From an uncultured bacterium (GTDB taxonomy: Bacteria; Patescibacteriota; Dojkabacteria; J137), in assembly GCA_963700155.1 (NCBI GenBank), contig OY969472.1, positions 66,058 to 130,057 on the forward strand: a stretch of DNA of 64,000 nucleotides, written 5' to 3'. Each line of letters begins with the position of its first letter. Positions within the stretch are counted from its first letter, which is position 1. Made by a program: the position numbers and the translations under genes. Below the pieces are notes generated by a model. That model saw nothing but the letters and a program-made list of their open reading frames with translations, did no database searches and had not been told where the DNA came from. This document shows, piece by piece, positions 14,971-46,889 of this stretch.

Positions 14971-15396
14971 TCATAATTCTTTGTCCGAGGTAATTCTAGT
15001 AATAATTGATAGACCTTTATCTGGATCTTCTTGATATATTTTAAATGTAGCACCATTCCATCTAAAATAAAAATCGTTACTTTTATTTGAAGCTATCCTT
15101 CTTACCAAATATAACCATTCATTATAACTATAAATTGATAAATCTACTTCTGCATTACTTGCATTAGATAATTGGATATTACATATCTCAAGCGGCATTT
15201 GAACTGATCCGGTACCTCTAATCCGATAAGAACATCGATATACTTTATCAAATAAAATATAAAAAGGTGGATTATATTTATTAATATCACTATTAGAAAT
15301 GTTCTGCTGTTCTAATGCAGAGATATATTCATTAATAATTCTTATTGTTGATTCTATATCTACCTCAAAGTTACTCCAATTGTTAATGTTTTTCAT
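14971..15396 (-). CDS. hypothetical protein
   Basis: the ORF-track N-terminus translates the terminator T-run from a TTG start; a start at the internal Met (MKNINNW) is more plausible. Confidence 0.3.
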   Translation of the reverse strand: MKNINNWSNFEVDIESTIRIINEYISALEQQNISNSDINKYNPPFYILFDKVYRCSYRIRGTGSVQMPLEICNIQLSNASNAEVDLSIYSYNEWLYLVRRIASNKSNDFYFRWNGATFKIYQEDPDKGLSIITRITSDKEL

Positions 15397-15451
15397 ATTT
15401 TTATTATATGATTTACTAAAAAGTTTTGAATAATAAAAGTAAAAGTGAATA

Positions 15452-15479
15452 TAAAAAAATCCCAATTTCTTGGGATTTA
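15452..15479 (-). terminator. rho-independent terminator on the minus strand between the island and the host gene
   Basis: AAATCCCAA-TTTC-TTGGGATTT stem followed by T7 on the minus strand. Confidence 0.45.
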
Positions 15480-15634
15480 AGATTCATATAGGTATGAATA
15501 TAAATCCCTTAGTTGGGAACAGACATCATAATAAAGAATTTTTGTGATTTAGTAATATTCATATTAAGAATTTTATCAGATGAAATTGTTATAGACAAAT
15601 TTTATTAGCTATTTTAAAGATTCAATAGCGAAAA

Positions 15635-15652
15635 GGGGGATTTTCATCCCCC
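15635..15652 (-). terminator. GC hairpin GGGGGA-TTTTCA-TCCCCC after the stop of the truncated paralog, marking the left edge of the island
   Basis: 6-bp GC stem, then UUUUCG on the minus strand. Confidence 0.4.
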
Positions 15653-15661
15653 TTTTCTAAA

Positions 15662-15871
15662 CTATCCTTTCTGAAGAGTTTCCTCTTCACTAATGATTTC
15701 AACAGGCCCATCTGCTGATTCGAGGAACCTCTTAGGTTTCTCAGGTAGATGATTTTTCCTCTTCAACTCGGATTCGTCTTCAGCAAGATTGTCCCAAAAA
15801 GTACTTACCTTTAGTTTTACCCATTCAACCAGAAGTTGATAGAGCAAATTAGGGACTATAATGCAGACCAC
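15662..15871 (-). pseudogene. truncated copy of the island membrane-protein family (C-terminal 69 aa only)
   Basis: aligns with the C-terminal tails of 16097-16621 and 17853-18329 (EKPKRFLESADGPVEII versus EETPKNDLVWHEESLEII); the upstream reading frame runs about 20 further codons, then stops where the sequence becomes AT-rich. Confidence 0.45.
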
Positions 15872-15948
15872 TGTTATAAGCAGCGGAAGTTCAGGGAAAA
15901 CCTTACCTACCGCATAAATAATGAGATTAAATTACTGTTAAGAGCATA

Positions 15949-15974
15949 AAGAATGGTTTAGTTTTAAAAGAACT
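15949..15974 (-). promoter_or_regulatory. island promoter-like box, copy a (plus strand AGAATGGTTTAGTTTTAAAAGAAC)
   Basis: one of seven copies of TTTTAAAGAAC, each 40-200 nt upstream of a minus-strand unit. Confidence 0.4.
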
Positions 15975-16010
15975 TTAGTACTAAATAATTTTTTACATTA
16001 GCACTTAACT

Positions 16011-16073
16011 TTTACCGTTTCGTCTTACCAATTACTTGGAAGACTCTTCAGTCCAGCTTCGCTGGAGACGGTC
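16011..16073 (-). ncRNA. hammerhead ribozyme, type III topology (HHR1)
   Basis: on the minus strand: GACCG-GUC | UCCAGC-GAA-GCUGGA | CUGAAGA | GUCUUCC-AAGUAAUU-GGUAAGAC | GAAA | CGGU; all core positions present. Confidence 0.7.
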
Positions 16074-16074
16074 A

Positions 16075-16091
16075 GGGGGATTTTATCCCCC
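16075..16091 (-). other. GC hairpin GGGGGA-TTTTA-TCCCCC between the stop codon of the 174-aa gene and HHR1
   Basis: 6-bp stem; no U-run; abuts the 5' arm of hammerhead stem III. Confidence 0.4.
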
Positions 16092-16096
16092 TTTCC

Positions 16097-16621
16097 CTAA
16101 ACCATACCTTTCTCCAATCTTTCGTCGATTGTGGCGTCAACCACGAGGAGACTCTCTCCATTCCAATGGAGATCTTCGTTCTTCGGCTTCTCTTCGTTCT
16201 TATCCTTCTCAGGTTCCATTGGGACAAGATATTTCCCAACCCAATGGTAGCGTACTGGTTGATTCTCGTTTTTCTTTTTTTCCTCGTTTCCAGAATTCTC
16301 CCACTTCAATACCCAGGTTAAGATAAGCCGTGGTCCATCAATTACCAAGTTATAGCACAGCAATACCATCACCATTGGTAATAAATCAAACATCCAATGA
16401 TTAAGGTATAGGTCGAGTAGGTGTATTACGAACACCATCATAGGGATACCTATCTTGAGCCATCCCCACACATCTTCTCTTGTTTCATTTTTAAACCAGA
16501 AATCGGTGAAAAAATCGCCAAATAGAACGCCAAAAACGATAAAAAAAAGGACAGCCAGTATCACGTAGATTACTTTCCCGACGACTACAACAACGACTTT
16601 GGCAATACGTTTTACAGACAC
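16097..16621 (-). CDS. island membrane protein family member (174 aa), 2-3 TM helices plus K/E-rich C-terminal tail
   Basis: GTG start 7 nt after AGGAGGG; GC-rich codon use; paralog of 17853-18329. Confidence 0.5.
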   Translation of the reverse strand: MSVKRIAKVVVVVVGKVIYVILAVLFFIVFGVLFGDFFTDFWFKNETREDVWGWLKIGIPMMVFVIHLLDLYLNHWMFDLLPMVMVLLCYNLVIDGPRLILTWVLKWENSGNEEKKKNENQPVRYHWVGKYLVPMEPEKDKNEEKPKNEDLHWNGESLLVVDATIDERLEKGMV

Positions 16622-16661
16622 TTTGATTCCCTCCTTTGCGGGTTGAATATCTTGAGAAATT

Positions 16662-16686
16662 AGAATGGTTTAGATTTTAAAAGAAC
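16662..16686 (-). promoter_or_regulatory. island promoter-like box, copy b (AGAATGGTTTAGATTTTAAAAGAAC)
   Basis: near-identical to copies a and d; 41 nt upstream of the 16621 start. Confidence 0.4.
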
Positions 16687-16942
16687 AATAAGTATTAAAT
16701 AAAAAATTTTACATTAATACTAATTCTTATTTTATTATATCATAAAAAATATATAATGTATATATCGTGTATTAATTAGAGTTTATCAAATGTTTTAGGA
16801 GAAACAAATATCTGCCCTCAAACAACATCCCGATAAAATCAAGATCCCTACCGTGTTTAAGGGCATATATTTACCTACGAATTATACCATTCAGAGTGTA
16901 TTTTAATATTTTTGGACTGTAGGGAAGTCCAATATTATTTTA

Positions 16943-17003
16943 CAAACCTTTCGTCTTACCAAATATGGAAGACTCATCAGTCCCGATTATCGGGAGAGGT
17001 TTT
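16943..17003 (-). ncRNA. hammerhead ribozyme, type III topology (HHR2)
   Basis: on the minus strand: AAACC-CUC | UCCCG-AUAA-UCGGGA | CUGAUGA | GUCUUCC-AUAUUU-GGUAAGAC | GAAA | GGUUU. Confidence 0.7.
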
Positions 17004-17009
17004 GGCGGG

Positions 17010-17387
17010 ATTCATATAGACTTTAACTAAAGTATCCCGCCAATTTACGCCACAGAGTGAATCATTTTGATATCTCCTCTAGAATCGAACATCTGGGCAA
17101 AAGCCCTTTGATCATTCACTTTAGCTAGTGAGACTAAAGTACTCAATAACTCCTTCGATGTTCCATCTTAGGTAGTTGATCAGGTCAAGTTACTGACCCT
17201 ATTGAGTTTGCACTAATATTTTTAGTACTATCGCATCGGCCCCAGAGAATTAGCTAACTCCGTACCGACTTTGCGCACAGGCAGTTTGTGATTTAACACA
17301 GCAGAGGGCTACTAACCACGATTTGAGTAACTAACCCAAACCAACATCTGCACTTATACCCTGTGAATTTTGTAATTCCCTCGAGAA
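17010..17387 (-). ncRNA. ORF-free structured segment between the 90-aa gene and HHR2 (3' UTR or independent ncRNA)
   Basis: GC-rich, no ORF of 60 aa or more; several hairpins (GGGC-AAAA-GCCC, GGTCA-AGTTAC-TGACC, ACTTTAG...CTAAAGT). Confidence 0.3.
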
Positions 17388-17660
17388 TTATTTCAAAGTT
17401 AACTCCTTGTATCTACGGATTCCCTGCACAACGCCTCTATAGAAGCAATCTCCAGCGGGATACCACTGGAGTGAGTCCTGTTCACGCATCTCAATCTTGA
17501 GATACGTTTCGAGTCCCCCATGGTCCTCCACGATGACCAGGAATACTACATGACCCCGTGGGTCTTCAACCAGAAACTCGCAGTATTGACCTGCGAGGTC
17601 AAGGTCGAGCTTTTGAAGCTCGACTGCCGCCGCAATTTCGAACCTTGAGTATTTATTCAT
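17388..17660 (-). CDS. island soluble protein, 90 aa, unknown function
   Basis: ATG 5 nt after GGAGGAG; GC-rich; no motif recognised. Confidence 0.45.
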   Translation of the reverse strand: MNKYSRFEIAAAVELQKLDLDLAGQYCEFLVEDPRGHVVFLVIVEDHGGLETYLKIEMREQDSLQWYPAGDCFYRGVVQGIRRYKELTLK

Positions 17661-17681
17661 CTTCTCCTCCACAGAGAACTA

Positions 17682-17697
17682 CATGCCAAATGGCATG
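17682..17697 (-). promoter_or_regulatory. palindrome CATGCC-AAAT-GGCATG in the 5' leader of the 90-aa gene
   Basis: 6-7 bp inverted repeat about 25 nt upstream of the start; same element upstream of two other island genes. Confidence 0.45.
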
Positions 17698-17750
17698 AGC
17701 TTATAGACATACATCTACAAACTGCTGCCATCTAACAATTCGATAGTATA

Positions 17751-17763
17751 AATTTTTAAAGAC
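17751..17763 (-). promoter_or_regulatory. island promoter-like box, copy c (AATTTTTAAAGAC)
   Basis: immediately downstream (minus sense) of HHR3; 91 nt upstream of the 17660 start. Confidence 0.35.
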
Positions 17764-17821
17764 CCAGTTTCGTCTTACCAAAATTTGGAAGACTCATCAG
17801 TCAGGCTAAGCCTGAGACTGT
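17763..17821 (-). ncRNA. hammerhead ribozyme, type III topology (HHR3)
   Basis: on the minus strand: CACAG-GUC | UCAGGC-UUA-GCCUGA | CUGAUGA | GUCUUCC-AAAUUUU-GGUAAGAC | GAAA | CUGGG. Confidence 0.7.
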
Positions 17822-17842
17822 GGAGAGGAATTTCACCTCTCC
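17822..17842 (-). other. GC hairpin GGAGAGG-AATTTCA-CCTCTCC between the stop codon of the 158-aa gene and HHR3
   Basis: 7-bp stem abutting the 5' arm of hammerhead stem III. Confidence 0.4.
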
Positions 17843-17852
17843 GATTTTGACT

Positions 17853-18329
17853 TTATTTCTTTTTTCTAAACCATCCTTTCTGAGGATCTTCGTCCTCCTC
17901 TATGATCTCAAGCGACTCTTCGTGCCACACAAGATCATTTTTGGGGGTTTCTTCGTTTTTCTTTTTCTTCTCTTTCTCCTCTTTATCCTCTGGAATCTTC
18001 TCCCAGAATCTAAAAAGAAGAATCCTGACTCCATCAACCAGGAGTTGACCTACCATGTAGGTCGCTAACATGATTATTAAAGCTTGGATTACGACTTGCA
18101 CTAAGTCATAATTCATGGGATTAATTGAATTCGTGAACATTATTATTGCTATTGCCCCGATAATAAGGGGTAATACCAATTTGAAAAAAAAGATTGAGGA
18201 GGTATTGCCGTGTAGCATCCACCAGTCCCAATCACCAAAGAATAAAACAGAAAATACCCTCCCCAAATTCTTCTTGGAAAGTCTGATATAGTTGTAAAAT
18301 TTTCGTAGATCCCGACGAGTGATCATCAT
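17853..18329 (-). CDS. island membrane protein family member (158 aa), 3 TM helices plus K/E-rich C-terminal tail (holin-like topology)
   Basis: paralog of 16097-16621 (shared LFGD...W, LLVDGVRIL, EETPKNDLVWHEESL motifs); SD AGGGAG. Confidence 0.5.
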   Translation of the reverse strand: MMITRRDLRKFYNYIRLSKKNLGRVFSVLFFGDWDWWMLHGNTSSIFFFKLVLPLIIGAIAIIMFTNSINPMNYDLVQVVIQALIIMLATYMVGQLLVDGVRILLFRFWEKIPEDKEEKEKKKKNEETPKNDLVWHEESLEIIEEDEDPQKGWFRKKK

Positions 18330-18413
18330 TTACTCCCTAGTAGAAAAATTGAACGAATTGTCATAATCGACATTCTAAGAACTTTGAGTACTCAAAATGC
18401 CGACTATGACTTA

Positions 18414-18437
18414 AGATGGTCTAGATTTTTAAAGAAC
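18414..18437 (-). promoter_or_regulatory. island promoter-like box, copy d (AGATGGTCTAGATTTTTAAAGAAC)
   Basis: 85 nt upstream of the 18329 start. Confidence 0.4.
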
Positions 18438-18472
18438 TTTATATTAATCCCAATGTAAAAGCATAAAAGGTT

Positions 18473-18496
18473 TCTCCCCTGATTTCTCAGGGGAGA
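18473..18496 (-). terminator. perfect hairpin TCTCCCCTGA-TTTC-TCAGGGGAGA downstream of the 337-aa gene
   Basis: 10-bp stem; U-rich tract follows on the minus strand. Confidence 0.4.
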
Positions 18497-18685
18497 GATA
18501 ACGAAATTTCAGACTTTAGTCTATCTCCAATTGGAGATTGTACCTGCACAAGGCAGGATTTTTCTGATCTATTCTTTTCTCAGGTTTATAACGGGTCTGC
18601 TAACCGTACAGTTCAGCCTGGTAAGGTTAGACTAAAACTGTCCCTAAGCTTTATTCAAGTTTAGGTTTGAGATATGAAATTTCAC

Positions 18686-19699
18686 CTAACGTCGATAGAT
18701 CATCCCAGACCCAAAGGCTTTGGGTGGGGATATCTTCATCCCCATTCGAGCGAATACACTTTCAAGGCGTGTTCGCTCTGACTCAAGTTTGAAGTTATCT
18801 CCCCCGGTGGGGAAGAACACAAAAACCTGAGTTTTGGGGTTTTGTTCAAGGATGACACGAATATCATCCTCTCCCGCTCCAACTTGAAGCGGAAACGACG
18901 TTGAAAACGGCTGGGTTTCCACCCAGCCGATAATTTCTGAGAGCGGCTTCAAGCCGCTCGAAGTGTAATCAGGGAGAGTGATGCGAACACCCTCTCCCTC
19001 CGTATAAATTGTCCAGATTCGTCCCTTCTCGCGGAGGGAAAACAGCTTTGCCCAAATCTGGGAATCGCTGCTCTGAGCTAGGACACTGGCGACGTACGAG
19101 TCCAACTCGTAGCCTCCAATGTCCATCCCAACCATACCCGCCGTGTAAGCGAATGCCCCCGCAGCTTGGCGGAGATAAGCGCCGGACACAATGAATGTGT
19201 CCGGCTCCCGTTCGAACCACTCAATGTGGTCGAACACGAACGGGGTCACGGGATCAACCGTGACCTTCAAAAAAGCTTGGTCGTGCTCAACCTGAGCACG
19301 ACCGTTTGCAAACCGGACAGCTTCAGCAGCGATTTTCATCGCTGCCTCCACCGCCCAGTTCGAGTCAGGGTCGTCCGCCCAGCGGGTGACCCATTCTTTC
19401 GAAATCCCAGCCTGGCGTTCGCCAGGCACGGAAACAATAACCCCCCAGCGGAGCTGGGAAGTATTGAGCCATTGCGGCATCGCTGCCGCAACGACTCCCG
19501 GGGTATTTTGCATGACAACCGCCTCGGCAGAGGCGGTAATTGCTTGCTGCTCGATCTCGGTCAACTGACCGATAACTTCAGCTTTGTTGAGCGCGAACGT
19601 AACGTTCGCGCTTCCAACAACTTCGACTTGGATGTGGCCGAAGTCGGTCGCATGACGACCGACAACAAAGAACTTTTTGGTTTGAATTTCATTTGCCAT
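18686..19699 (-). CDS. island 337-aa protein, unknown function (strongly GC-biased codons)
   Basis: ATG preceded by GGGGAGGAG; no catalytic or structural motif recognised from sequence alone. Confidence 0.5.
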   Translation of the reverse strand: MANEIQTKKFFVVGRHATDFGHIQVEVVGSANVTFALNKAEVIGQLTEIEQQAITASAEAVVMQNTPGVVAAAMPQWLNTSQLRWGVIVSVPGERQAGISKEWVTRWADDPDSNWAVEAAMKIAAEAVRFANGRAQVEHDQAFLKVTVDPVTPFVFDHIEWFEREPDTFIVSGAYLRQAAGAFAYTAGMVGMDIGGYELDSYVASVLAQSSDSQIWAKLFSLREKGRIWTIYTEGEGVRITLPDYTSSGLKPLSEIIGWVETQPFSTSFPLQVGAGEDDIRVILEQNPKTQVFVFFPTGGDNFKLESERTRLESVFARMGMKISPPKAFGSGMIYRR

Positions 19700-19710
19700 T
19701 TTGAATCTCC

Positions 19711-19725
19711 TCCCCTTCGTGGGGA
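19711..19725 (-). promoter_or_regulatory. 5-bp GC hairpin overlapping the SD of the 337-aa gene
   Basis: minus strand UCCCC-ACGAA-GGGGA; the 3' arm is part of the GGGGAGGAG SD. Confidence 0.3.
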
Positions 19726-19741
19726 CTTAAAAGAACAGATT

Positions 19742-19759
19742 TCATGCCCATTGGCATGA
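19742..19759 (-). promoter_or_regulatory. palindrome TCATGCC-CATT-GGCATGA in the leader of the 337-aa gene
   Basis: 7-bp inverted repeat; a related TGCCA-A-TGGCA core at 19791-19801. Confidence 0.45.
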
Positions 19760-19900
19760 GTCAGAAAACAAATTTTTGCTTTCAAGCTACTGCCAATGGC
19801 AATCTTCTCTTTTTAGAGTTAGACATTGAAAATTTCGTTTGCAGTTATACTGCTACATTGAAATTAATATTTTATGAAGTTATTAAAATTAATTAATAAC

Positions 19901-19916
19901 TTGTTTTTTAAAGAAC
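19901..19916 (-). promoter_or_regulatory. island promoter-like box, copy e (TTGTTTTTTAAAGAAC)
   Basis: about 200 nt upstream of the 19699 start. Confidence 0.35.
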
Positions 19917-20113
19917 ATCTTCTTAAAAGAAGAGATTAATTTAAAAAGACTAAAATACCCTCTTATTTCAAGGTTCGAGAGGTGGTCTTTAGCCACCCCT
20001 CATTTGTATTCTACTTGATTACTAAAAAAACTTAAGTTTTCAAGTAGATAGACTTTAGACATTTTTCACTCGCACCTATTTCTAGGTTGCCTCTTTGTGA
20101 GTTTTTTGGTGGG

Positions 20114-20527
20114 TTAAAAAGATTCCACCTCATGAACTCCCCCAAGGGGGCTGCTAACCAGCCGGGTCGCCCCGACTGACTCAGCGATCCGATTCAGCCG
20201 AGGACTGACCTCGGCAATCCTCAAAAGGAGGTCACTCTTTTTGGGATCCTCCACAGGAGTATCCCAAAGTTCTTTTGCCTCCTCTAAGGTGTAGGGCATA
20301 CCGCCCTCCACCCTAATTTCGACGCCCACCCACTGGGCGTCGACCTCGAGGTATTTAACCTCGGCTTTGAATCCTTCCTTTAGGAAGGATTGCAAAACCT
20401 GTTCTTTCTTCGCCTGCATACCTTGCAGGCGAACGATCATACCCTCCAAGGTTTTTACACCTTCGAGAAAATCCCCCACCCTAACGGTGGGGTATAGACC
20501 GTCATCAAAGTGCATTGTTACTTTCAT
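20114..20527 (-). CDS. island soluble protein, 137 aa, unknown function
   Basis: ATG 5 nt after GGAGGAG; the ORF-track start at 20566 is the ATG inside the leader palindrome and is unlikely. Confidence 0.45.
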   Translation of the reverse strand: MKVTMHFDDGLYPTVRVGDFLEGVKTLEGMIVRLQGMQAKKEQVLQSFLKEGFKAEVKYLEVDAQWVGVEIRVEGGMPYTLEEAKELWDTPVEDPKKSDLLLRIAEVSPRLNRIAESVGATRLVSSPLGGVHEVESF

Positions 20528-20549
20528 TTTTCTCCTCCTCGGAGAATAT

Positions 20550-20568
20550 TCATGCCCGAATGGCATGA
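20550..20568 (-). promoter_or_regulatory. palindrome TCATGCC-CGAAT-GGCATGA in the leader of the 137-aa gene
   Basis: 7-bp inverted repeat; this leader is about 75% identical over 105 nt to the 90-aa gene leader. Confidence 0.45.
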
Positions 20569-20620
20569 GTATATAGACACAAATCTACATACTACTACCA
20601 TTCAGCAATTTGAAAGTACA

Positions 20621-20634
20621 AGTTTTTAAAGAAC
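20621..20634 (-). promoter_or_regulatory. island promoter-like box, copy f (AGTTTTTAAAGAAC)
   Basis: 94 nt upstream of the 20527 start. Confidence 0.4.
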
Positions 20635-20639
20635 ACTGC

Positions 20640-21350
20640 TTTCACAGAGGTTGATAAACTTTTTGATTTACCAACCTCTATTAAAGCTTTTAAGGACTGC
20701 CCTGCTCTCGCGGGGCTTTTGTCATTCGACTTACTTTAAGACTTTTCTCTTACACCTCGGCCACAACGGCTTGGAGGTAAATTTTGTAAATGCCGAAAAA
20801 CTCGGAATTTACTATTTAATATTTGTCTGCATTATATGCAGCACTTTGCTTCGGACAACTAATGTTACCCCCGACCATAATTGCATCTCTCCTATCACTT
20901 TTCGGAGAGAGGATTGAAAACTTTTTAAAATTCTCAATCCTCTCCCCGAAAATCGGGGAAAGGAAAGTCTTTGCTCAAGTGATAGTAACTTGAGACTACT
21001 ATCTTTTTAACCGGTTAACTGTACCTCGCTTTTACGAGACCACCAGTAATCTAACCGATCATCCAGATAATCAAGTATTTAAATACTTAACTACCTTGGT
21101 AGGGTAAGGTAACAAATATATAAATATTTGATTACCTAAATAGCTAGTTCGTACTCACATTTAAGTGAACCACCGAATTTAGCATTAAGCTTTTGTTTAA
21201 TGGAACAAAGCCTAAAAAACAAAAAAAGCTTAGCGTGACTTAAGATAATTCAATCTTAAACCTTGCTAAGCTTTCTAAAAAAACATATTATATTTTTAAT
21301 ATTAATATGTTCAAGCCAATAAGGTAGGATTTATTATCTTGAGCAAATAT
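20640..21350 (-). ncRNA. ORF-free, hairpin-dense segment of about 700 nt; candidate structured RNA with its own promoter box
   Basis: at least 10 stems of 6-9 bp (AGAGGTTG..CAACCTCT, TCTCTCC..GGAGAGA, GAGGATTGA..TCAATCCTC, CCCCGA..TCGGGG, CTCAAGT..ACTTGAG, TTAACCGGTTAA, AAGTATTTAAATACTT, GCTTAGC..GCTAAGC); box g at its upstream end; the only ORF (88 aa, plus strand) looks spurious. Confidence 0.3.
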
Positions 21351-21351
21351 T

Positions 21352-21366
21352 AAGTTTTAAAAGAGC
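21352..21366 (-). promoter_or_regulatory. island promoter-like box, copy g (AAGTTTTAAAAGAGC), no ORF downstream
   Basis: marks the right edge of the island; followed on the minus strand by the structured ORF-free segment. Confidence 0.3.
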
Positions 21367-21563
21367 ATTTATTACTTTAAAGATATTACTATTATATACC
21401 TAGATATATAATATGTCAATACATGGCAACAAATTTTATATATTTTGACATATCACCTATTCACCCTATCAATAAGGCTATCAACAAATCGACGCTGCAT
21501 TATTTACTATTTTTTCACCAATTAGTGATAGTTTTTATCAAAAATGAGTTAGAATAAATACAT

Positions 21564-23711
21564 ATGATACAAAAAAATAACAAACATCAACCTGATGAAA
21601 ATATTGAAACTCAGGTTGATTTAAAAAGAGAGTTGTTTAGTCTTATAAAATCCTCCATTCTTGCAAGAACTAAAGCTAATAGAATGGACTCATATGATAG
21701 TCAAGAAATTTTAAATGCAATTTTTCACCAATTTCCTCAGCTCAGAAGTGAACAATTGCTCCATAATCATCTTGAATGGAATATAAATGAAGTTGATTGG
21801 AACTCTTCAGATTACGTAAATTACTTTTATGGGAATCCTGAAAATTTAGATACAGTTGTTAAATTTATTACTGATAATATTTGGTCTATTCCATTTTTAA
21901 CACCTAATCTGATAAATGAAGCGAAGAAAGAAGATGTTATACCATCAACTATACAAATCTTATATTCAATAATAGAAAAACTCTTACAGCAAAGAAACAT
22001 TGAATCCGCAAAAACATTAAGCAAGAAAATTCTAGTTAATATAAATCTGCTAGTTGAGCTAGGTGGTCATATATGGGTAAATAAATTATTAGAAGCGATT
22101 TCACTACAGAATCATGATCTTTGGGTAAATATATACGGTATGAAAGAGGAAGAATATCAATATTATTTAGATTATCAGAAAAAGATTGAGGGTATTTATG
22201 AATTCAATTCACAAATTCGAAAGCTTGCAAAAGGTAGAATCAACAACTATTCAAGAGATGAAAATGGAGAATTGATTACAACACGCACCGATCATGAAAG
22301 CGAAATTTGGAGAATTGCTGGTAGGAATATACCTTTTATACAACCAGATGATGTACTAGAAAAAGATATCTCAGAAATATGGAGAAATTACGAACAAGAA
22401 CTAATTAATTATATTACTAAAATAAATAAAAGTGATCCTGGGTGGCAATTAATTATAACCGAAATAAATAAACTGGTAGAATATTTAGGAGATAAGGACA
22501 TCAGAGGTCTACACTTAGAATATCCTTTTTGTTTAAATACATTAAGGCAAAATATATTATCTGAATTTAAACGAAAGATTTATTACGACACAAAAACTCT
22601 ACCTGGGAAAACTCCAGCTCCTAAAGACGATAGAGGAAAATCTACGAATTTTCTTGCACAAAATTCAAGCCAAAATGTTTTTATAAGCTATCTGGCATTG
22701 CGACGCCTTATGTTCCCAGACGAAGATTTAGAAAATATAGATGTAAATTCCCCTCGAGCTCATTTAGATTTAGATAGCGTTTATGAAATAGCAAATTTTG
22801 AAGAATATTCAGAAAGCAAACAACTTGAAAGTACACTATATAGAAGAAATATGATATTAGAAATATTAAAAGAATTAAACCTGAATACCACTCAAATCTT
22901 TGAACTAGGCAGTGGGAGTGGTTGGCTTACAAAACAATTACACGATTCCCTACCTGAAGTCCCTATACACAGTCTGGAAATAAGTACTGACCAAATAAAT
23001 GCTGCAAAAAGATTTTTGAAAGATGCAATAGATAAAGAAAATATAACAATTTCCCAACTATCTTGGGACGAATTATCTAGTTGGGTTCCCTTTATAAATA
23101 GAAACAAGACAATTCCAGCAGTATTACTTTGGATGGGAAGAAGTGCTACACATGAAGAGAGTCAAGATTCCTTTATAGCAACGTTACTTAACTTTTCTAA
23201 GTTTATGGAAAATGGAGATTTTCTAATAATGGATATGCCTGATCCAAATACAGGAACATATATAAAACTAAGACAAAATATGGTTAATGCGTTCAATAAA
23301 ATTGGGGAAAATTTAGACCCAATTGTACACATCGAACTAGAAGATTTTGACTATTTGGTTGATTCACCTGATGGTGAACATAATTATAATAGATTTACAC
23401 CTTCCTATCAGAAACTATTGAAAATTTTTGAATTTATAGGATTAGAACCTCAAATTGTTACATTACCGGAGAATATTGGGAAATCAAACTTTAGGAACCT
23501 TGAACAAACTGATAAGATGGATAAATGCATTTTAGAAAGAGTAAATTCAACAGAATATACTAAACGATCAGATCATTCTAACGGATTAACTGATGAAGAT
23601 TATAATAATCGTAGAAATATGGTTTTTGTATTAAAAAAGACAAGAAATGTAGATAGTTTTATATTAAACAATAAGACAGCATTATTACAAACACCTGGAA
23701 GAAGATTATAA
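21564..23711 (+). CDS. multidomain protein with C-terminal class I SAM-dependent methyltransferase fold
   Basis: motif I ELGSGSGW in the C-terminal third; N-terminal 400 aa unassigned. Confidence 0.45.
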   Translation: MIQKNNKHQPDENIETQVDLKRELFSLIKSSILARTKANRMDSYDSQEILNAIFHQFPQLRSEQLLHNHLEWNINEVDWNSSDYVNYFYGNPENLDTVVKFITDNIWSIPFLTPNLINEAKKEDVIPSTIQILYSIIEKLLQQRNIESAKTLSKKILVNINLLVELGGHIWVNKLLEAISLQNHDLWVNIYGMKEEEYQYYLDYQKKIEGIYEFNSQIRKLAKGRINNYSRDENGELITTRTDHESEIWRIAGRNIPFIQPDDVLEKDISEIWRNYEQELINYITKINKSDPGWQLIITEINKLVEYLGDKDIRGLHLEYPFCLNTLRQNILSEFKRKIYYDTKTLPGKTPAPKDDRGKSTNFLAQNSSQNVFISYLALRRLMFPDEDLENIDVNSPRAHLDLDSVYEIANFEEYSESKQLESTLYRRNMILEILKELNLNTTQIFELGSGSGWLTKQLHDSLPEVPIHSLEISTDQINAAKRFLKDAIDKENITISQLSWDELSSWVPFINRNKTIPAVLLWMGRSATHEESQDSFIATLLNFSKFMENGDFLIMDMPDPNTGTYIKLRQNMVNAFNKIGENLDPIVHIELEDFDYLVDSPDGEHNYNRFTPSYQKLLKIFEFIGLEPQIVTLPENIGKSNFRNLEQTDKMDKCILERVNSTEYTKRSDHSNGLTDEDYNNRRNMVFVLKKTRNVDSFILNNKTALLQTPGRRL

Positions 23712-25378: not shown

Positions 25379-28048
25379 TTAATAGTTTATCGATATCCAT
25401 TTTTTTAAACAATCAAGAACTTCATCTTTTGAAAGGTCTGCTCTTCTCATAATCATCTTTTCATTATTACCTTCTATACCATATCGGACTACAATTTCAG
25501 TATCTCCTCCATTCTCAAAACATTTTTTTAAATTTTGTAACTCACTTTCATCTGTTACACCTCGTATATCAATATTTAATTTTCTTGGTTGATGTAATGT
25601 GTTCCCATGTTCTACTTCATTTACTATAATTGATTTCCTATCGTCGCGAATATTTATTGTACCTCTGATAATTAAAGGTGTTGTTTCGAGAAGCAAATGT
25701 TGAATTTTTTCAAAAGTTCGGGGAAATACAACTGCATCAGCTTTACTTGTGTCATCTTCAAGTGTAAGTATCGCCATCCTTTGATTATCTTTCTTAGTAA
25801 AAGTATATCTTACATTAGAAATAGTACATAGAACTTTAATATTCTTATTGTGTTCTAATTCATCTATTGTGTTTAATTTAACAAATTCTGGGAAAATTCT
25901 TGTCCATCCAAATCTCTGTAAGGGATGAGATGAGATAAAAATTCCTAAAAGCTCTTTTTCCCATTTTATTTTCTCGTTCTCTCTAACAGGATCAACTTCG
26001 GGTAAAGTAGTTGCATTAACTTTTCTTACAACGGGTTCTTCATCACCACCTAAAAGACTAAATAAGTCAGTCTGATTTTCATCAACAGCTTTTGATTTTA
26101 TATTCGCCTTTTGTAAAACTTCTGGCATTACAGTTAAAAGCGCATTCCTATCCCCAAATTCATCTAATGCACCTGAACGTATTAAACTTTCTAATGATCT
26201 TTTATTAATAATATCTGTTCCAACTCTTACTACTAAATCATCCATGCTTGTATATACTCCATTTTCTTCTCTTTCTTTTATAGTCGTTTGACAAACTTTA
26301 ATCCCAACATTTTTTATAGCACCTAACCCAAATCGGATAGAATCTTCGTTTTCAGGGGAGAAGTAAACTTTAGAAGTATTTATATTTGGTGGCAAGACTT
26401 TATAACCCATTCTTTTAGCTTCTTGAATATCAATTGTAACCCTATCTAAATTTTCAAGGTCAGCATGCATCAAAGCTGTCATAAATTCTAAAGGGAAATG
26501 TGCTTTTAAATATGCACATTTATATGCCAACACAGCATACCCAGCAGCATGAGCTTTATTGAATCCATAATCAGCAAATGGCAAAAGCATTTCCCAAAGT
26601 TTATCTGCTACTGCCTGCGAAAAGCCGTTTTTTACGATTCCTTCTTTAAATTTTGGCTCTTCTTTCTTCATTACATCAAGTTTCTTTTTCCCGACGGCTT
26701 TTCGCAGGCTATCAGCTGCACCCATATTATAACCTGCTAAATCTACAGCAACTCTCATCAACTGCTCTTGATAAATCATATATCCATTTGTAACATCAAC
26801 AATATGTTTAAGTTCAGGAATTGGATATTCAGCTTTTTTTAATCCATGTTTTATTTTTATATAGTCAGGGATGTATTTCATGGCACCTGGACGATATGCA
26901 GCAACCATAAAACAGATATCCTCTTGTGTTTCAGGTCTAAGTTCTTTTAGATATTGCTGCATAGGTGGTGACTCAAACTGGAATACACCAATTGTTTCAC
27001 CTTTAGAAAATATGTCAAAGGTTTTTTTATCATCTGAAGGAATATTATAAAAATCTACATTATTTCCATCTTTTCCATTAATTAACTTAAGAGCATAATC
27101 AATAATACCTAATGTTCTTAAACCCAAGAAATCAAATTTCATTAAACCTAACTCTTCAATATATGGACCTTCAAACTGAGTTACAGTTCTACCCTCACCT
27201 CCTCGCTCTTTTTGAAGTGGAACATAGTTTATTATTGGACCTGGAGTAATAAGATGTCCGCAAGCATGTACTGAAGAATGTCTCCCCATATTCTCAATCT
27301 TGCGAACATAATTAGCAAGTTCCTGAAGCTTAGGATTTCCATTTATTATCGAAGAAAATTCTTCATCTGTCTCCATCATCTTGTCTATTGGATAAACTTT
27401 TCCAAATAAAACGTGAACCATTTTAGAAAGCTTATCAGCTAATACTAAATCGATACCCATTACTCTTGCAACATCTCTAATCGCAGCTTTAGTTTTTAAT
27501 CTTCCAATGGCTATAATCGCAGAAACTGCATCTTCACCATATTTTTCTTGAGCATATGCAATAACCTCATCTCTTCTTGTATCTTGAATATCCATATCGA
27601 TATCTGGAGGTGAAGGCCTTTCAGGGTTTAAAAATCTTTCAAAATAAAGTTCCCACTTTAAAGGTTCAACCTCAACAATTTCAAGACAATGAGCAACAAC
27701 ACTTCCTGCAACAGAACCTCGTACTCCCATAAGGATTCCCTGGCTTGCTGACCATTTCATTAAGTCAGAAACTACAAGAAAATAATCATCGTATCCTTTG
27801 TCATGAATAACACCTAATTCATATTCAATTCTTTCAAATAAATCATCACCTAAATAATCTTTTAAAGTTTCATAATTTGCATTATCAATTTCTTGAAGCA
27901 TAAAATCATTAGTTAATGACTTTTTCTCATGACGATATTTAGAATCTTTATATTTTATTATTGCACCTTGATAAGTCTGCTTTTTTAAGTTCATCTCCTG
28001 CAGTGCTTCCTTTTGGTACATTCCAAAACTTTGGCTGAACTCTGTCAA
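25379..28048 (-). CDS. dnaE: DNA polymerase III alpha subunit, polymerase core and C-terminal part (in a different frame from the PHP part)
   Basis: DnaE palm/fingers motifs (GYDDYFLVVSDLM, FDFLGLRTL, KAHAAGYAVLAYKCAYLKAHFP). Confidence 0.8.
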   Translation of the reverse strand: MTEFSQSFGMYQKEALQEMNLKKQTYQGAIIKYKDSKYRHEKKSLTNDFMLQEIDNANYETLKDYLGDDLFERIEYELGVIHDKGYDDYFLVVSDLMKWSASQGILMGVRGSVAGSVVAHCLEIVEVEPLKWELYFERFLNPERPSPPDIDMDIQDTRRDEVIAYAQEKYGEDAVSAIIAIGRLKTKAAIRDVARVMGIDLVLADKLSKMVHVLFGKVYPIDKMMETDEEFSSIINGNPKLQELANYVRKIENMGRHSSVHACGHLITPGPIINYVPLQKERGGEGRTVTQFEGPYIEELGLMKFDFLGLRTLGIIDYALKLINGKDGNNVDFYNIPSDDKKTFDIFSKGETIGVFQFESPPMQQYLKELRPETQEDICFMVAAYRPGAMKYIPDYIKIKHGLKKAEYPIPELKHIVDVTNGYMIYQEQLMRVAVDLAGYNMGAADSLRKAVGKKKLDVMKKEEPKFKEGIVKNGFSQAVADKLWEMLLPFADYGFNKAHAAGYAVLAYKCAYLKAHFPLEFMTALMHADLENLDRVTIDIQEAKRMGYKVLPPNINTSKVYFSPENEDSIRFGLGAIKNVGIKVCQTTIKEREENGVYTSMDDLVVRVGTDIINKRSLESLIRSGALDEFGDRNALLTVMPEVLQKANIKSKAVDENQTDLFSLLGGDEEPVVRKVNATTLPEVDPVRENEKIKWEKELLGIFISSHPLQRFGWTRIFPEFVKLNTIDELEHNKNIKVLCTISNVRYTFTKKDNQRMAILTLEDDTSKADAVVFPRTFEKIQHLLLETTPLIIRGTINIRDDRKSIIVNEVEHGNTLHQPRKLNIDIRGVTDESELQNLKKCFENGGDTEIVVRYGIEGNNEKMIMRRADLSKDEVLDCLKKWISINY

Positions 28049-28964
28049 AAGCTATACTATAATCTTCTATTTGTTCAGATATTTTCATTGTATTTTCTAC
28101 TGCGGAGATTTCATCGGAAAACTTCTCTTCCATCTCTTCAGATGATGTTATATAAGTCCCAACGTAACCTTTTCTACAAGTTTCATCTGAGAGAAGTTTT
28201 CCGTCTTTTATTGCAAATAGTACTGTTTGAACATCTTTATCTTCAGCGTCTAAATAATGAGCGTCTGTAGTGGCTACAAGCGGAAGTTTATATTTGTCTG
28301 CGAATTCTCTTAGCTTTAAATTCGCGAATTTCTGTTGTCTTGCATCATCAATAGATTCTTCACCTGAGTCATCATTTAAGTTTGAGCTAATTCTCGACTT
28401 TTCACCACTAGTTAAATCATCACTTCCATTAAAGCCATGACGCTGCAATTCTAAATAAAAGTTATCTTTAAAAGTATTACTAAAGAATTGCAGCCATTCT
28501 TCTGCTTTATCAAATTCTTTTCTTAAAATATGCCTTGATAATGGGCCAGCCATACATGCTGAAGTACAAATGATGCCTTCAGAATATTTTTGTAAAATTT
28601 CTCTATCAACTCTAGGTCTATAATACATCCCCTCTAACTGTCCAATACTTACAATTTTTAATAAATTTTGATAACCAGTAAAATTCTTAGCAAGAAGTAA
28701 TAAATGATAATATTTTATACCACCGACTGTCTCTCTAAGAGTTCTCTCTTTTGGTGCAAGATAAATTTCGCAACCGATTATCGGTTTTATATGAAAATCT
28801 TTGGAATATTTCCAGAATTCAGCCATTCCATACATAACGCCATGGTCAGTTAAAGCTACAGAATCCATTCCAAGTTTTTGGACTTTATCTAAAAGTTTTG
28901 GGATTCGATTAACACCATCCAATAATGAATATTCTGAGTGTACGTGTAAATGTGTGAACGACAT
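27948..28964 (-). CDS. dnaE: DNA polymerase III alpha subunit, N-terminal PHP domain part
   Basis: FTHLHVHSEYSLLDG PHP signature; overlaps the next dnaE ORF by 101 nt in another frame, with an A6 run in the overlap. Confidence 0.8.
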   Translation of the reverse strand: MSFTHLHVHSEYSLLDGVNRIPKLLDKVQKLGMDSVALTDHGVMYGMAEFWKYSKDFHIKPIIGCEIYLAPKERTLRETVGGIKYYHLLLLAKNFTGYQNLLKIVSIGQLEGMYYRPRVDREILQKYSEGIICTSACMAGPLSRHILRKEFDKAEEWLQFFSNTFKDNFYLELQRHGFNGSDDLTSGEKSRISSNLNDDSGEESIDDARQQKFANLKLREFADKYKLPLVATTDAHYLDAEDKDVQTVLFAIKDGKLLSDETCRKGYVGTYITSSEEMEEKFSDEISAVENTMKISEQIEDYSIAFDRVQPKFWNVPKGSTAGDELKKADLSRCNNKI

Positions 28965-38495: not shown

Positions 38496-39901
38496 TAAAC
38501 CCACATAGCCTCTATTCCAATTATATTATTATCAATTAGTTTTTTATCTTTCTGATCTAAAACTATCAAACTAGCTGAAGAAGGTTTGGTCTGGAATAAA
38601 TAGTTCCTCTGATCCTCGAAATTCAATAGATTTTGCTTAGTGTATCTTTCGATTACAATATATCTATCATCAGGACTGATTCTTGGAAGTTCTAGACTAC
38701 GATCTTCATCCTTTAATAAAACCTTTTCATTTCCTTTATTATCAATTTTCACAATTTCATAAATCCCTTTTGTTGTAGGTAATTCTTTATATTCTTGTGC
38801 AAAAATTATATCATCATCAGTAAAATCATATTCAGGATCAAGAACTGGTACATCACCATTAGTTAATTTTTTTTGCTTTCTGTCAGAAGTATAAACCGTA
38901 AGATATTGAGCTTTAGTATATGTCGATAAAGGATCATATGCTATATAAATTATTTTATCGCTGTCTTTGTTAAAACCACCATCAGCTAAAAACCTTTCCA
39001 ATACTGTTTTATCTGAAGGATTATCAATTGGTATAATGTAATAATATGAGTCACTTGATTTAAATAAAATACTTCCACCATCAGCAGAATACTTCATATC
39101 AATTATCTGTATTGAAAGATAATCACTATTCAAAATCTTATTAGTTCCAGAATCAATATCATATAAATTCAAATCAATCTGGTTAGAAGGTTGGGTATAT
39201 TCGTCTTTTTTTTCAATTTCTTGTGTTAAATAAATAAATTGATTTGCAACTGGTGAAAAATCTAATCTATCAATGGTGACAGAACCCAAATCAAATTTCT
39301 TAATTTCTCCTGTTTTAAGATTTTTAAATTGTAAACTATCAATTCCTTCACTATCTGTAACAACAACAAGATAATCTTTATTTAATGCGAACAGCTTAAT
39401 ATTTGATGTTTGAAATAGAACCTTTGGGTTCTGGAAGTCAGGATCTGCTAAAATTATTTGCTGATCACTTTGTGAGTTTTTTTGAATATAAGCTAAATGT
39501 AAATTTTCTGTTTTGAAATTATAGAGAAAATCTTCTGTTAAATTTTTTCCATAAACATCCTTCATATCCTTGCTGATTTTAATTTGGTAATCAGTTGAAG
39601 CTATTAAATTGCCTTTAAAAATGATAAACAAGGTATTATTTGACCATGATGTAGAAAAATTAGCTGATGGATTTATAGTTACATAGTGGGCCGATGAATC
39701 TTTATTCATCGGCCCACTAAAATATACTTTAACTCTTTGGTCTTTTATTCCTAATGAATTCTGATCTCCATTAATCTCAACAAATCTAACATGTGGAGCT
39801 GTATTCAAATTTAGATACACAAAAATAAGTATCAAAATTAAAATCACTACAATTGAAAATGACATTATAAGATTAAATTTGTCTTTAAAAAAAACCCTCA
39901 T
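38492..39901 (-). CDS. membrane-anchored beta-propeller (TolB-like) protein
   Basis: N-terminal TM helix followed by repetitive beta-rich sequence. Confidence 0.35.
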   Translation of the reverse strand: MRVFFKDKFNLIMSFSIVVILILILIFVYLNLNTAPHVRFVEINGDQNSLGIKDQRVKVYFSGPMNKDSSAHYVTINPSANFSTSWSNNTLFIIFKGNLIASTDYQIKISKDMKDVYGKNLTEDFLYNFKTENLHLAYIQKNSQSDQQIILADPDFQNPKVLFQTSNIKLFALNKDYLVVVTDSEGIDSLQFKNLKTGEIKKFDLGSVTIDRLDFSPVANQFIYLTQEIEKKDEYTQPSNQIDLNLYDIDSGTNKILNSDYLSIQIIDMKYSADGGSILFKSSDSYYYIIPIDNPSDKTVLERFLADGGFNKDSDKIIYIAYDPLSTYTKAQYLTVYTSDRKQKKLTNGDVPVLDPEYDFTDDDIIFAQEYKELPTTKGIYEIVKIDNKGNEKVLLKDEDRSLELPRISPDDRYIVIERYTKQNLLNFEDQRNYLFQTKPSSASLIVLDQKDKKLIDNNIIGIEAMWVY

Positions 39902-45962: not shown

Positions 45963-46889
45963 ATGGAAAGTTTAAGTAATAAAATTAAGAAAATAGTTAA
46001 TGAAGCAAAAGCTTTAAGAGAAAAATATATTTTAGATACTCCAGCTGAATTAGATTATGTTGCCTTATTTACACATAAAAATAAAGAATATGAATTCTAT
46101 TTAGAAGAAGCTAGTAAAATAGGGAAAATAAAAAGTGAAAACAAAACTGGTGTAACTTTTGAGTTAAATGAAAACTATGAAACTATTGATGGTGAATTTA
46201 AATTTCTAAAAATAAGAAAACCTGATGATAAAAAAACACAATTAGGTGCACCCGATTATAAAATTGCAAACTATGAAGAATTTAAAAATAAATATCTTGA
46301 TAATTTTCATTTTATTATAAAAAAGTCATCAGATGGATTTGAGCTTATTGAATTATCTGATAAAGACTTTGATGTTTTGATTTACTTTCCAAGAATTCCG
46401 CTAAGTTCAGAAAAAGAAAATACCAATTCAAATCTAGATGAATTGCAGGAACTAAAGCTTCAATTAACTGAAGAGAAGGGGAAAAGATTGCAGTTGATGG
46501 CGGATTTCCAGAACTTCCAAAAAAGAATAAATGAGGAGAAATCCGCCTGGGGTGCTTTATCAAATATGGCGTTGATCCAAGATATTCTTGAAGTCTTTGA
46601 TGATATTGAGCTAGCCATGAATGATGAGAATTTAACATTAGAGCATGCAAAGCATTCATTGAAATCTGCACAAGATAAAATAATAGCTGCAGCATTAAAA
46701 GCAGGAGTAGAAAAAATTGAAGTTAATGTTGGCGATGAATTTGATAAAGAAAAAATGGAAGCAGTAACAATGGTTCCTGTACAAGATAAAAAACAATCTG
46801 GAAGAGTCATTGCAGTTATTAGTTCAGCATATAAATTGACAAACAAGGAAGGTATCTTAAGACCTGCTAAGGTTGTTATAGGTAAATAA
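45963..46889 (+). CDS. grpE: nucleotide exchange factor GrpE (with N-terminal extension)
   Basis: C-terminal GrpE coiled-coil and beta-domain (LQLMADFQNFQKR ... VMKGY-like); operon context. Confidence 0.75.
   Translation: MESLSNKIKKIVNEAKALREKYILDTPAELDYVALFTHKNKEYEFYLEEASKIGKIKSENKTGVTFELNENYETIDGEFKFLKIRKPDDKKTQLGAPDYKIANYEEFKNKYLDNFHFIIKKSSDGFELIELSDKDFDVLIYFPRIPLSSEKENTNSNLDELQELKLQLTEEKGKRLQLMADFQNFQKRINEEKSAWGALSNMALIQDILEVFDDIELAMNDENLTLEHAKHSLKSAQDKIIAAALKAGVEKIEVNVGDEFDKEKMEAVTMVPVQDKKQSGRVIAVISSAYKLTNKEGILRPAKVVIGK

Follow-up and report, generated by a model that had tools for sequence, protein, structure and literature searches.

What are hammerhead ribozymes for in a bacterial chromosome? 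The question has stood since bacterial hammerheads were discovered in 2011, and it is raised again by a stretch of 64,000 nucleotides (nt) from an uncultured Dojkabacteria bacterium of the Patescibacteriota (contig OY969472.1 of assembly GCA_963700155.1), hereafter the window, whose minus strand carries three hammerheads in a GC-rich gene island. An earlier note on this DNA had left two readings of them undecided, processing of a read-through transcript with definition of mRNA 3′ ends, and formation of circular RNAs. The first of these is backed by the genomic context and by comparison with other genomes, whereas the second fails the sequence-level tests applied here. Our reading, to which we assign a probability of about 0.6, is that the hammerheads act as RNA punctuation, cutting one long minus-strand transcript into single-gene mRNAs. 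The arrangement and both readings of it had already been published in 2011 (PMC3088659), which the note had missed; the layout of ribozymes flanking genes has been known since then, and the window is a further example. What we did not find described is a hammerhead subfamily, mostly of Patescibacteria, that lies in chromosomal GC-rich ORFan islands not recognisable as phages and is often fused to a boxA antitermination signal.

Three co-oriented type III hammerheads on the minus strand

Reading the minus strand between positions 15700 and 18200 revealed three complete type III hammerheads, all in the same orientation. Each copy consists, in order, of the stem III 5′ arm, U16.1, C17 (the cut), stem I, the core, stem II, GAAA and the stem III 3′ arm. 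Stem I comprises 6 bp and a 3-nt loop and is followed by CUGA(U/A)GA, and the long stem II (GUCUUCC...GGUAAGAC) contains one bulged U. The catalytic core (C3 U4 G5 A6 N7 G8 A9 ... G12 A13 A14) is present in all three copies, as are the A15.1-U16.1 pair and a residue other than G at H17, the cut being preceded by U-C in 3/3 copies. Minimum-energy folds of the isolated motifs had the type III topology, in which loops close stems I and II while stem III is open, and for hammerheads 2 and 3 the hammerhead fold was also the minimum-energy structure in the native context. Judged by these sequence features, the three motifs are genuine hammerheads with predicted self-cleavage. The ribozymes and the GC hairpins beside them are as follows.

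17822..17842, minus strand: GC hairpin without a U-tract, ending 6 nt before cut site 1
17761..17823, minus strand: hammerhead 1, type III, predicted to cut at 17816/17815; stem III of 4 bp plus 1
17004-17041, minus strand: GC hairpin without a U-tract, ending 8 nt before cut site 2 and closing the 384-nt non-coding tail
16942..17003, minus strand: hammerhead 2, predicted to cut at 16996/16995
16075..16091, minus strand: GC hairpin without a U-tract, ending 8 nt before cut site 3
16011..16074, minus strand: hammerhead 3, predicted to cut at 16067/16066; core CUGAAGA, position 7 being the variable one

In a search of 8 kb against all 4227 Rfam families, the three motifs matched RF00008 (Hammerhead_3) on the minus strand at 17762-17823 (38.3 bits, E = 1.3e-5), 16943-17003 (34.3 bits, E = 1.8e-4) and 16012-16074 (32.3 bits, E = 6.3e-4), and the alignments were full-length, spanning model positions 1-54 of 54. 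A default Rfam scan is silent on this locus because the scores fall short of the RF00008 gathering score of 48.5 bits. Three occurrences of the shared core and stem II pattern were counted in the window, where shuffles predict 0.00. No fourth hammerhead emerged when all of the window was scanned, unfiltered, with a covariance model, and the E-value mode of Rfam returned the three hammerheads as the only ribozymes in the 13-21 kb region. The next covariance-model hit, at 46298-46357 (19.9 bits), is without a hammerhead core and was rejected as a chance match, as was a core match at 38647.

Contents of the predicted cleavage units

Cleavage on the minus strand is predicted after C17816, C16996 and C16067, and would release products of 820 nt (17815..16996) and 929 nt (16995..16067), exactly the sites and sizes claimed by the earlier note. 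The gene content that it had assigned to the two units was likewise recovered in full. The 820-nt unit contains a box at 17753-17764, palindrome P1 at 17682-17697, an open reading frame (ORF) of 90 amino acids (aa) at 17388-17660, and a structured tail (17004..17387, minus strand), estimated in the note at 380 nt and found to span 384 nt, which is non-coding and folds better than its shuffles (z = -4.4). This tail is without a relative in other hammerhead loci. The 929-nt unit contains an AT-rich spacer (22% GC at 16600-16799), a box at 16675-16686, the 174-aa ORF at 16097-16621 and the GC hairpin at 16075-16091. The GC hairpin that the note had placed near the end of each upstream product is present at all three sites, 6, 8 and 8 nt before the cuts. 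The three copies thus bracket the 90-aa and 174-aa genes, on the coding strand of both. The boxes of the note match the boxA antitermination consensus, which it had missed, as described below.

Covariation of the ribozyme stems

The three copies already differ among themselves by compensatory changes in stems I and III. For a broader view, 32 copies of the subfamily described below were aligned and compared with 500 shuffles. Standard base pairing was present in 93.3% of cells, against 70.1% in the shuffles, and the covariation score was 0.587, against 0.132 in the shuffles, a value that 0/500 shuffles reached. Stem I was 100% paired with compensatory changes in 6/6 pairs, and stem III showed compensatory changes in 6/7 pairs, its inner four pairs being always formed. 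In slid controls only 34-42% of cells were paired, against 93% in register. Stem II says nothing about covariation, since the search pattern had fixed it. The neighbouring paralogous membrane proteins of the island are merely 28-35% identical. As the stems compensate while these proteins have diverged that far, the sequence record argues for selection on the ribozymes.

Predicted promoters, boxA-like elements and predicted terminators of the island

The island extends over about 15.5-21.4 kb of the window, and all of its genes are on the minus strand. Its transcription signals are listed in the direction of transcription.

21391..21419, minus strand: predicted promoter at the island head, TTGACA-17 nt-TATAAT, 12/12 consensus matches
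21355..21366, minus strand: boxA-like GCTCTTTTAAAA, at about +19 to +30 of the predicted transcript
21209..21276, minus strand: predicted intrinsic terminator in the leader, a hairpin (21276-21223) followed by UUUUUUUGUUUUUU; -23.6 kcal/mol, z = -3.8
20623..20634, minus strand: boxA-like GTTCTTTAAAAA, in the 5′ untranslated region (UTR) of the 150-aa gene
19905..19916, minus strand: boxA-like element, in the 5′ UTR of the 337-aa gene
18426..18437, minus strand: boxA-like element, in the 5′ UTR of the 158-aa gene, with a hairpin (18473-18496) before it
17753..17764, minus strand: boxA-like variant GGTCTTTAAAAA; it overlaps the 3′ arm of hammerhead 1 stem III at the outer end
16734..16762, minus strand: candidate internal promoter in the AT-rich spacer, TATACA-17 nt-TG-TATAAT, a consensus match only (10/12)
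16675..16686, minus strand: boxA-like GTTCTTTTAAAA, in the 5′ UTR of the 174-aa gene, 270 nt from hammerhead 2
15962..15973, minus strand: boxA-like element of the 69-aa gene (5′ UTR), 44 nt downstream of hammerhead 3
15630..15652, minus strand: hairpin resembling a terminator, with a short U-run, at the closing end of the island; another is found at 15457-15478

The promoter at the island head is the sole perfect sigma-70 match in 15000-21700. Seven boxes were found in total: the leader of the island has one, and six island genes each have one in the 5′ UTR. When compared with the published boxA consensus GYTCTTTAANA (Baniulyte et al. 2017, PMC5725501), three of them, at 18427, 19906 and 20624, are perfect matches; the other four depart from it, three by an extra T (GTTCTTTTAAAA twice and GCTCTTTTAAAA once) and the fourth being GGTCTTTAAAAA. 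Matches to KYTCTTTWAAAA are concentrated in the island, where 6/7 of those in the window fall on the minus strand, against 1.74 expected. The leader box stands in the transcribed leader after the predicted promoter (21419-21391) and before the predicted terminator, at 21366-21355, about 25 nt past the former, and the terminator follows about 80 nt further. Promoter, boxA and terminator are thereby packed into about 200 nt (21209-21419, minus strand) in the manner of an attenuator-like gate, which suggests that expression of the island depends on antitermination.

That the box is an element of the 5′ UTR follows from locus L134 of the subfamily described in the next section, where it lies between the ribozyme and AAGGAGG-ATG. 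The order there is hammerhead, boxA, AAGGAGG and ATG within 30 nt, the Shine-Dalgarno sequence and ATG being 10 nt off, and the box was therefore rejected as a promoter. The window is without a ribosomal RNA (rRNA) operon; in the 16S rRNA leader of Microgenomates locus L149, a motif of the same type, AGTTCTTTGACAATT, follows a hairpin, and the motif in the leader at L139 is degenerate.

A hammerhead subfamily centred on Patescibacteria

The core together with the base of stem II was used as an exact pattern to scan contigs of the Genome Taxonomy Database (GTDB; one genome per species), metagenomes and IMG/VR. This returned 30 loci in GTDB contigs, mostly from Patescibacteria, also known as the candidate phyla radiation (CPR), with representatives in Saccharibacteria, WWE3, Woese-, Ames-, Falkow-, Dojka- and Paceibacteria and Microgenomates, and 65 loci in metagenomes; it returned none among the 2.9 million viral contigs of IMG/VR. 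The subfamily is recognised by a 6-bp stem I with a triloop and a long stem II (GUCUUCC...GGYAAGAC) with a bulge. Not one of about 35 related hammerheads at 15 other loci reaches the Rfam gathering score, and standard Rfam annotation misses the subfamily entirely.

With a covariance model built from the 32 copies, co-oriented arrays were found at L154 (seven hammerheads in 4.4 kb), L148 (four), L133 (four) and L140 (three). Several arrays lie in GC-rich ORFan stretches adjoining AT-rich host genes, as at Saccharibacteria L148 and L154 and also at L140, and some flank accessory genes such as those for a DinG-like helicase or a Fic protein. In blastn comparisons the conserved sequence shared between islands consisted of the hammerheads, with or without boxA, and nothing else.

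Two elements accompany the ribozymes. Upstream hairpins without a U-tract are enriched near the cuts of the subfamily (Mann-Whitney p = 0.002), and 21/29 of them end 5-9 nt before the cut. On the other side, a boxA-like motif starts no more than a few nt from the 3′ arm of stem III in 18/47 genome hammerheads, from nine genomes, against a background of 0.46% per window searched (p ~4e-30). This adjacency was replicated in the independent metagenome set (8/53 distinct copies, p ~1e-11) and was seen in 0/130 hammerheads from viral contigs (phage). Our searches of the literature library found no paper linking hammerheads with CPR taxa and no natural hammerhead-boxA pairing, the full-text co-occurrences being one engineered use and a review.

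Three further observations were made at these loci. A second hammerhead class, whose stem I has a 5-7 nt AUGUGUA-like loop and whose stem II (GUCC/GCUC-AAAA) is short, was seen in the same arrays (L154 2270-4433, L148 5903-7496, L140 256-844 and L137 5101-5157) and is also followed by boxA-like GUUCUUUGA or GAUCUUUAAAA. At L139 5455-5514 and L149 1113-1172 a subfamily hammerhead is followed directly by an intrinsic terminator, with no boxA there; the L139 copy lies about 150 nt past the 3′ end of a 16S rRNA gene, on the opposite strand. Finally, the viral contig IMGVR_UViG_3300031092_000002 (L054 1-2996), 2996 nt long with about 121 nt of terminal redundancy and so circular or concatemeric, encodes a GDD polymerase-like motif in its single long ORF and has a hammerhead at 2264-2296; its appearance is that of a ribozyme-bearing RNA replicon of the ambivirus or mitovirus type, unrelated to the window.

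Proposed processing of a long transcript and its alternatives

A read-through transcript across the island is plausible, because a promoter, boxA, a leader terminator and an operon crossed by hairpins form the classic layout of processive antitermination. Transcription would start at the consensus promoter (21419-21391), and the leader boxA, repeated before every gene, would recruit NusB/NusE-type factors, so that a modified RNA polymerase could pass the leader terminator and the GC hairpins that are without U-tracts. Each hammerhead would fold as it emerges and cleave itself. The upstream message would then end in a GC hairpin plus a tail of 6-8 nt with a 2′,3′-cyclic phosphate, and the downstream message would carry its 5′-OH immediately at the stem I hairpin, with stem II next and boxA after that. 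The two products would both have structured, exonuclease-resistant ends, and the downstream RNA would keep a boxA tether of its own to the polymerase after the cut. Single-gene mRNAs, about 820 and 929 nt long, would result, and neither their stability nor their translation would depend on their neighbours any longer. This processing is backed by the strong promoter and boxA at the island head, by the U-less hairpins and by the recurrence of the module in many Patescibacteria genomes.

Several points weigh against this reading. All three window hammerheads score under the RF00008 gathering threshold, although that score is a threshold for annotation and not a biochemical criterion, and a long stem II is penalised by it. 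Hammerhead 1 is weak, its stem III having 4 bp and its context fold showing a competing helix. The candidate internal promoter at 16762-16734 could free the 174-aa mRNA from read-through, and three other island junctions have a hairpin and boxA without a ribozyme, so that cleavage is not needed for the expression of every gene. In the subfamily, upstream hairpins and boxA adjacency are frequent but not universal. The island boxes are putative boxA elements, assigned by their sequence match only, and, while the anatomy of the module and its conservation are observed, we infer cleavage, continuity of the transcript and Nus binding from sequence.

Of the alternatives, the formation of circles was the one that the earlier note had kept beside processing. 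Double cleavage followed by RtcB-type ligation would yield stable circular RNAs, protein-coding circular mRNAs included, or intermediates of a mobile cassette, and the spacing that the note had pointed to does hold, since the distances of 820 and 929 nt between the co-oriented type III copies are inside the 600-1000 nt range of retrozyme circles. Both units also fold better than their shuffles (z = -8.75 and -4.67, 20 shuffles each), and the ORFan genes between the hammerheads look like exchangeable cassettes. The ends of the units, however, do not fit: the 3′ end of the 820-nt unit, AAAACCUC, is unable to pair with the hammerhead 1 arm ACUGGG, that of the 929-nt unit, UGACCGUC, is unable to pair with the hammerhead 2 arm AGGUUU, and the unit termini are unpaired in centroid folds. 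At L154, L148 and L140 the stem III arms are nearly identical (CUGU/ACAG), such that the unit ends could rebuild a hammerhead, but this arm is the subfamily consensus in singletons too and so is not specific to circles. There are no LTR-like repeats (LTR, long terminal repeat), the repeats around the ribozymes being 49-nt ribozyme-plus-hairpin cores only, with 69-73% identity; the two units are unlike each other and carry ORFs with ribosome-binding sites, whereas the units of retrozymes and viroids are non-coding. Circular or spliced products were sought from prophage hammerhead clusters by Perreault et al., and none were found (PMC3088659). Circles are therefore regarded as highly improbable at this locus. 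The view that the ribozymes are passengers or relics, i.e. remnants of a mobile element or phage, or selfish elements, without a present role, draws on the foreign composition of the island (40-58% GC against 29%), its ORFan gene content, the three junctions that work without a ribozyme, and the phage-like early-gene modules in which relatives of the N-terminal domain of the 337-aa protein are found. It is quite unlikely, given that the cores are perfect in 3/3 copies, that the stems have been compensated while the neighbouring genes diverged strongly, and that the position relative to hairpin and boxA is constant in many unrelated genomes whose islands are otherwise unconserved; perfect cores, compensation and constant position together point to selection for function.

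A role as a conditional switch would keep the ribozymes functional in another way. Binding of NusB/NusE at boxA, which abuts or overlaps the short 3′ arm of stem III, or else a different signal, would control the formation of stem III and in this way set the ratio of cleaved to polycistronic RNA and with it the expression of distal cassettes. In the subfamily boxA begins 0-3 nt after the 4-6 bp stem III arm or overlaps it, and the box of hammerhead 1, GGUCUUUAAAAA, has two G residues in common with the arm. Stem III is short throughout the subfamily, with only the inner four pairs always formed, hammerhead 1 has its competing helix, and regulated cleavage of phage hammerheads was raised by Perreault et al. 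(PMC3088659). Against this, at hammerheads 2 and 3 boxA is 270 and 44 nt away, which makes such gating impossible there, an adjacent boxA is missing in most subfamily members, and the proposal is purely inferential. We consider a switch unlikely. More speculative than plain processing, and doubtful in our estimate, is an extension of it in which the hairpin-hammerhead-boxA module would be a general punctuation system of Patescibacteria islands that couples self-cleavage to Nus antitermination: the cut would sever the old boxA tether, the new boxA would reload the polymerase, and NusB/NusE may gate the cut. If such coupling is real, ORFan cassettes could stand behind one promoter and yet give separately stabilised mRNAs.

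For transcript processing by the hammerheads, the comparison across genomes yields a testable link between a ribozyme, a 3′ protective hairpin and a boxA/Nus signal. If confirmed, this would explain the expression of acquired cassettes in the reduced genomes of CPR bacteria, and the modules would be natural compact insulator parts.

Genes and other features of the island

The GC content is 40-58% over about 15.6-21.2 kb, against about 29% for the window and the genome. The surrounding chromosome genes of the window include DnaE, MutS and DnaK (NCBIfam) and a MetRS-like ORF read from the sequence. The island is foreign-looking in composition and presumably a horizontally acquired accessory island. 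The genes at or next to the hammerheads, and the palindrome, are listed below.

17853..18329, minus strand: 158-aa membrane-protein gene upstream of hammerhead 1, a paralog of the 174-aa and 69-aa genes
17682..17697, minus strand: palindrome P1, CATGCC-N4-GGCATG, part of a 77-nt leader duplicated at 20556-20632
17388..17660, minus strand: 90-aa ORF, an ORFan, with GGAGG 5 nt before the ATG
16097..16621, minus strand: 174-aa membrane-protein gene, an ORFan
15662..15871, minus strand: 69-aa gene, resembling the C-terminal half of the 158-aa protein

The genes at 15662-15871, 16097-16621 and 17853-18329 encode three diverged small membrane-protein paralogs with a charged C-terminal tail, and each of them is followed by a GGGGGA- or GGAGAGG-type hairpin. 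This family is without relatives among 5.8 billion proteins. Searches of 5.8 and 1.8 billion proteins found no relatives of the 174-aa and 90-aa proteins, and seven island proteins had no match in Pfam or PHROG. For the 337-aa protein (18686-19699, minus strand) 14 relatives were found, covering the N-terminal half only, an alpha/beta domain of about 160 aa with the motifs VGRH, QNxPG, SxPGxR, ANGRAK and VTVDP. The AlphaFold model of this domain is confident (predicted local distance difference test, pLDDT, of about 90 for residues 1-165) and had no match in the PDB at E <= 0.001. With respect to a phage origin, 50,697 phage records yielded no match to the island at either the DNA or the protein level, neither an integrase nor a phage hallmark gene is in reach of it, and no convincing att-type direct repeats were found at its borders.

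The palindrome CAUGCC-N4/5-GGCAUG occurs at 17682-17697, 19743-19758 and about 20551-20570 (minus strand), 20-45 nt before the start codons of the 94-, 337- and 150-aa genes. The 77-nt leader that runs from boxA to the palindrome is duplicated, at 17686-17762 and 20556-20632, with 81% identity, and is probably an operator or RNA hairpin for some regulator. The 150-aa and 94-aa proteins were considered as paralogs and rejected, their homology being confined to these leaders. The island head also contains a well-folding non-coding leader of about 700 nt (20640-21200, minus strand) with a long hairpin at 20885-20966; neither this leader nor the 384-nt tail belongs to an Rfam family or has a relative in other hammerhead islands. 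Outside the island, the gene for DNA polymerase III alpha (25379-28964, minus strand) appears split into an 889-aa ORF and an overlapping upstream 338-aa ORF, the former matching the model only from position ~300 onward; a frameshift, an intein or a split gene may account for this.

Comparison with known systems

The nearest described system is that of the prophage hammerhead clusters, in which co-oriented hammerheads flank single prophage genes, and for which both processing and circles or splicing were proposed (Perreault et al. 2011, PMC3088659). Cleavage of these ribozymes was demonstrated in vitro and after cloning into E. coli (PMC3088659). The window is similar in the spacing of its co-oriented hammerheads, from a few hundred to a thousand nt, and in the varying single genes that they flank, and tandem hammerheads are also common in IMG/VR contigs (L050, L051, L017, L038 and L070). 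It differs in that its island is chromosomal, GC-rich and made of ORFans, in a bacterium with a 1.14-Mb genome, with no integrase or phage hallmark gene nearby, and in that its subfamily is often placed directly before boxA, unlike the phage hammerheads.

Retrozymes consist of ~350-bp LTRs, each with a hammerhead, together with a primer-binding site (PBS), a polypurine tract (PPT), target-site duplications and a non-coding core of 600-1000 bp (Cervera et al. 2016, PMC4918200; de la Pena & Cervera 2017, PMC5680766). As in retrozymes, viroid-like RNAs and satellite RNAs, same-orientation type III hammerheads delimit units of 600-1000 nt in the window, whose predicted cleavage ends would be ligatable. 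Long direct repeats of the LTR kind (~350 bp) are absent from the window, as are target-site duplications, and no PBS or PPT motifs were evident in its units. Unlike those of retrozymes, the window units are coding (the 90-aa and 174-aa ORFs have Shine-Dalgarno sequences), they are not copies of each other, their stems III are heterologous, and the host is a bacterium.

The boxes resemble the boxA of rrn and lambdoid antitermination (PMC5725501; NusB-NusE-boxA structure, PMC3177189) in consensus, in their position in the leader, and in the hairpin-then-box order, which is that of boxB-boxA in rrn. In contrast to these systems, the box is repeated seven times in one protein-coding island, one per 5′ UTR, and in the wider subfamily it is fused to the 3′ side of a ribozyme.

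The mechanism proposed for the island follows the same logic as engineered ribozyme insulators. A hammerhead placed before a gene cuts away the RNA context lying upstream and gives the remaining message a structured 5′ end, and synthetic insulators of this kind, such as RiboJ, were reportedly introduced by Lou and colleagues in Nature Biotechnology in 2012. RiboJ-type insulators are engineered, whereas the island module is natural and multi-copy and is combined with an upstream 3′-end hairpin and a downstream boxA.

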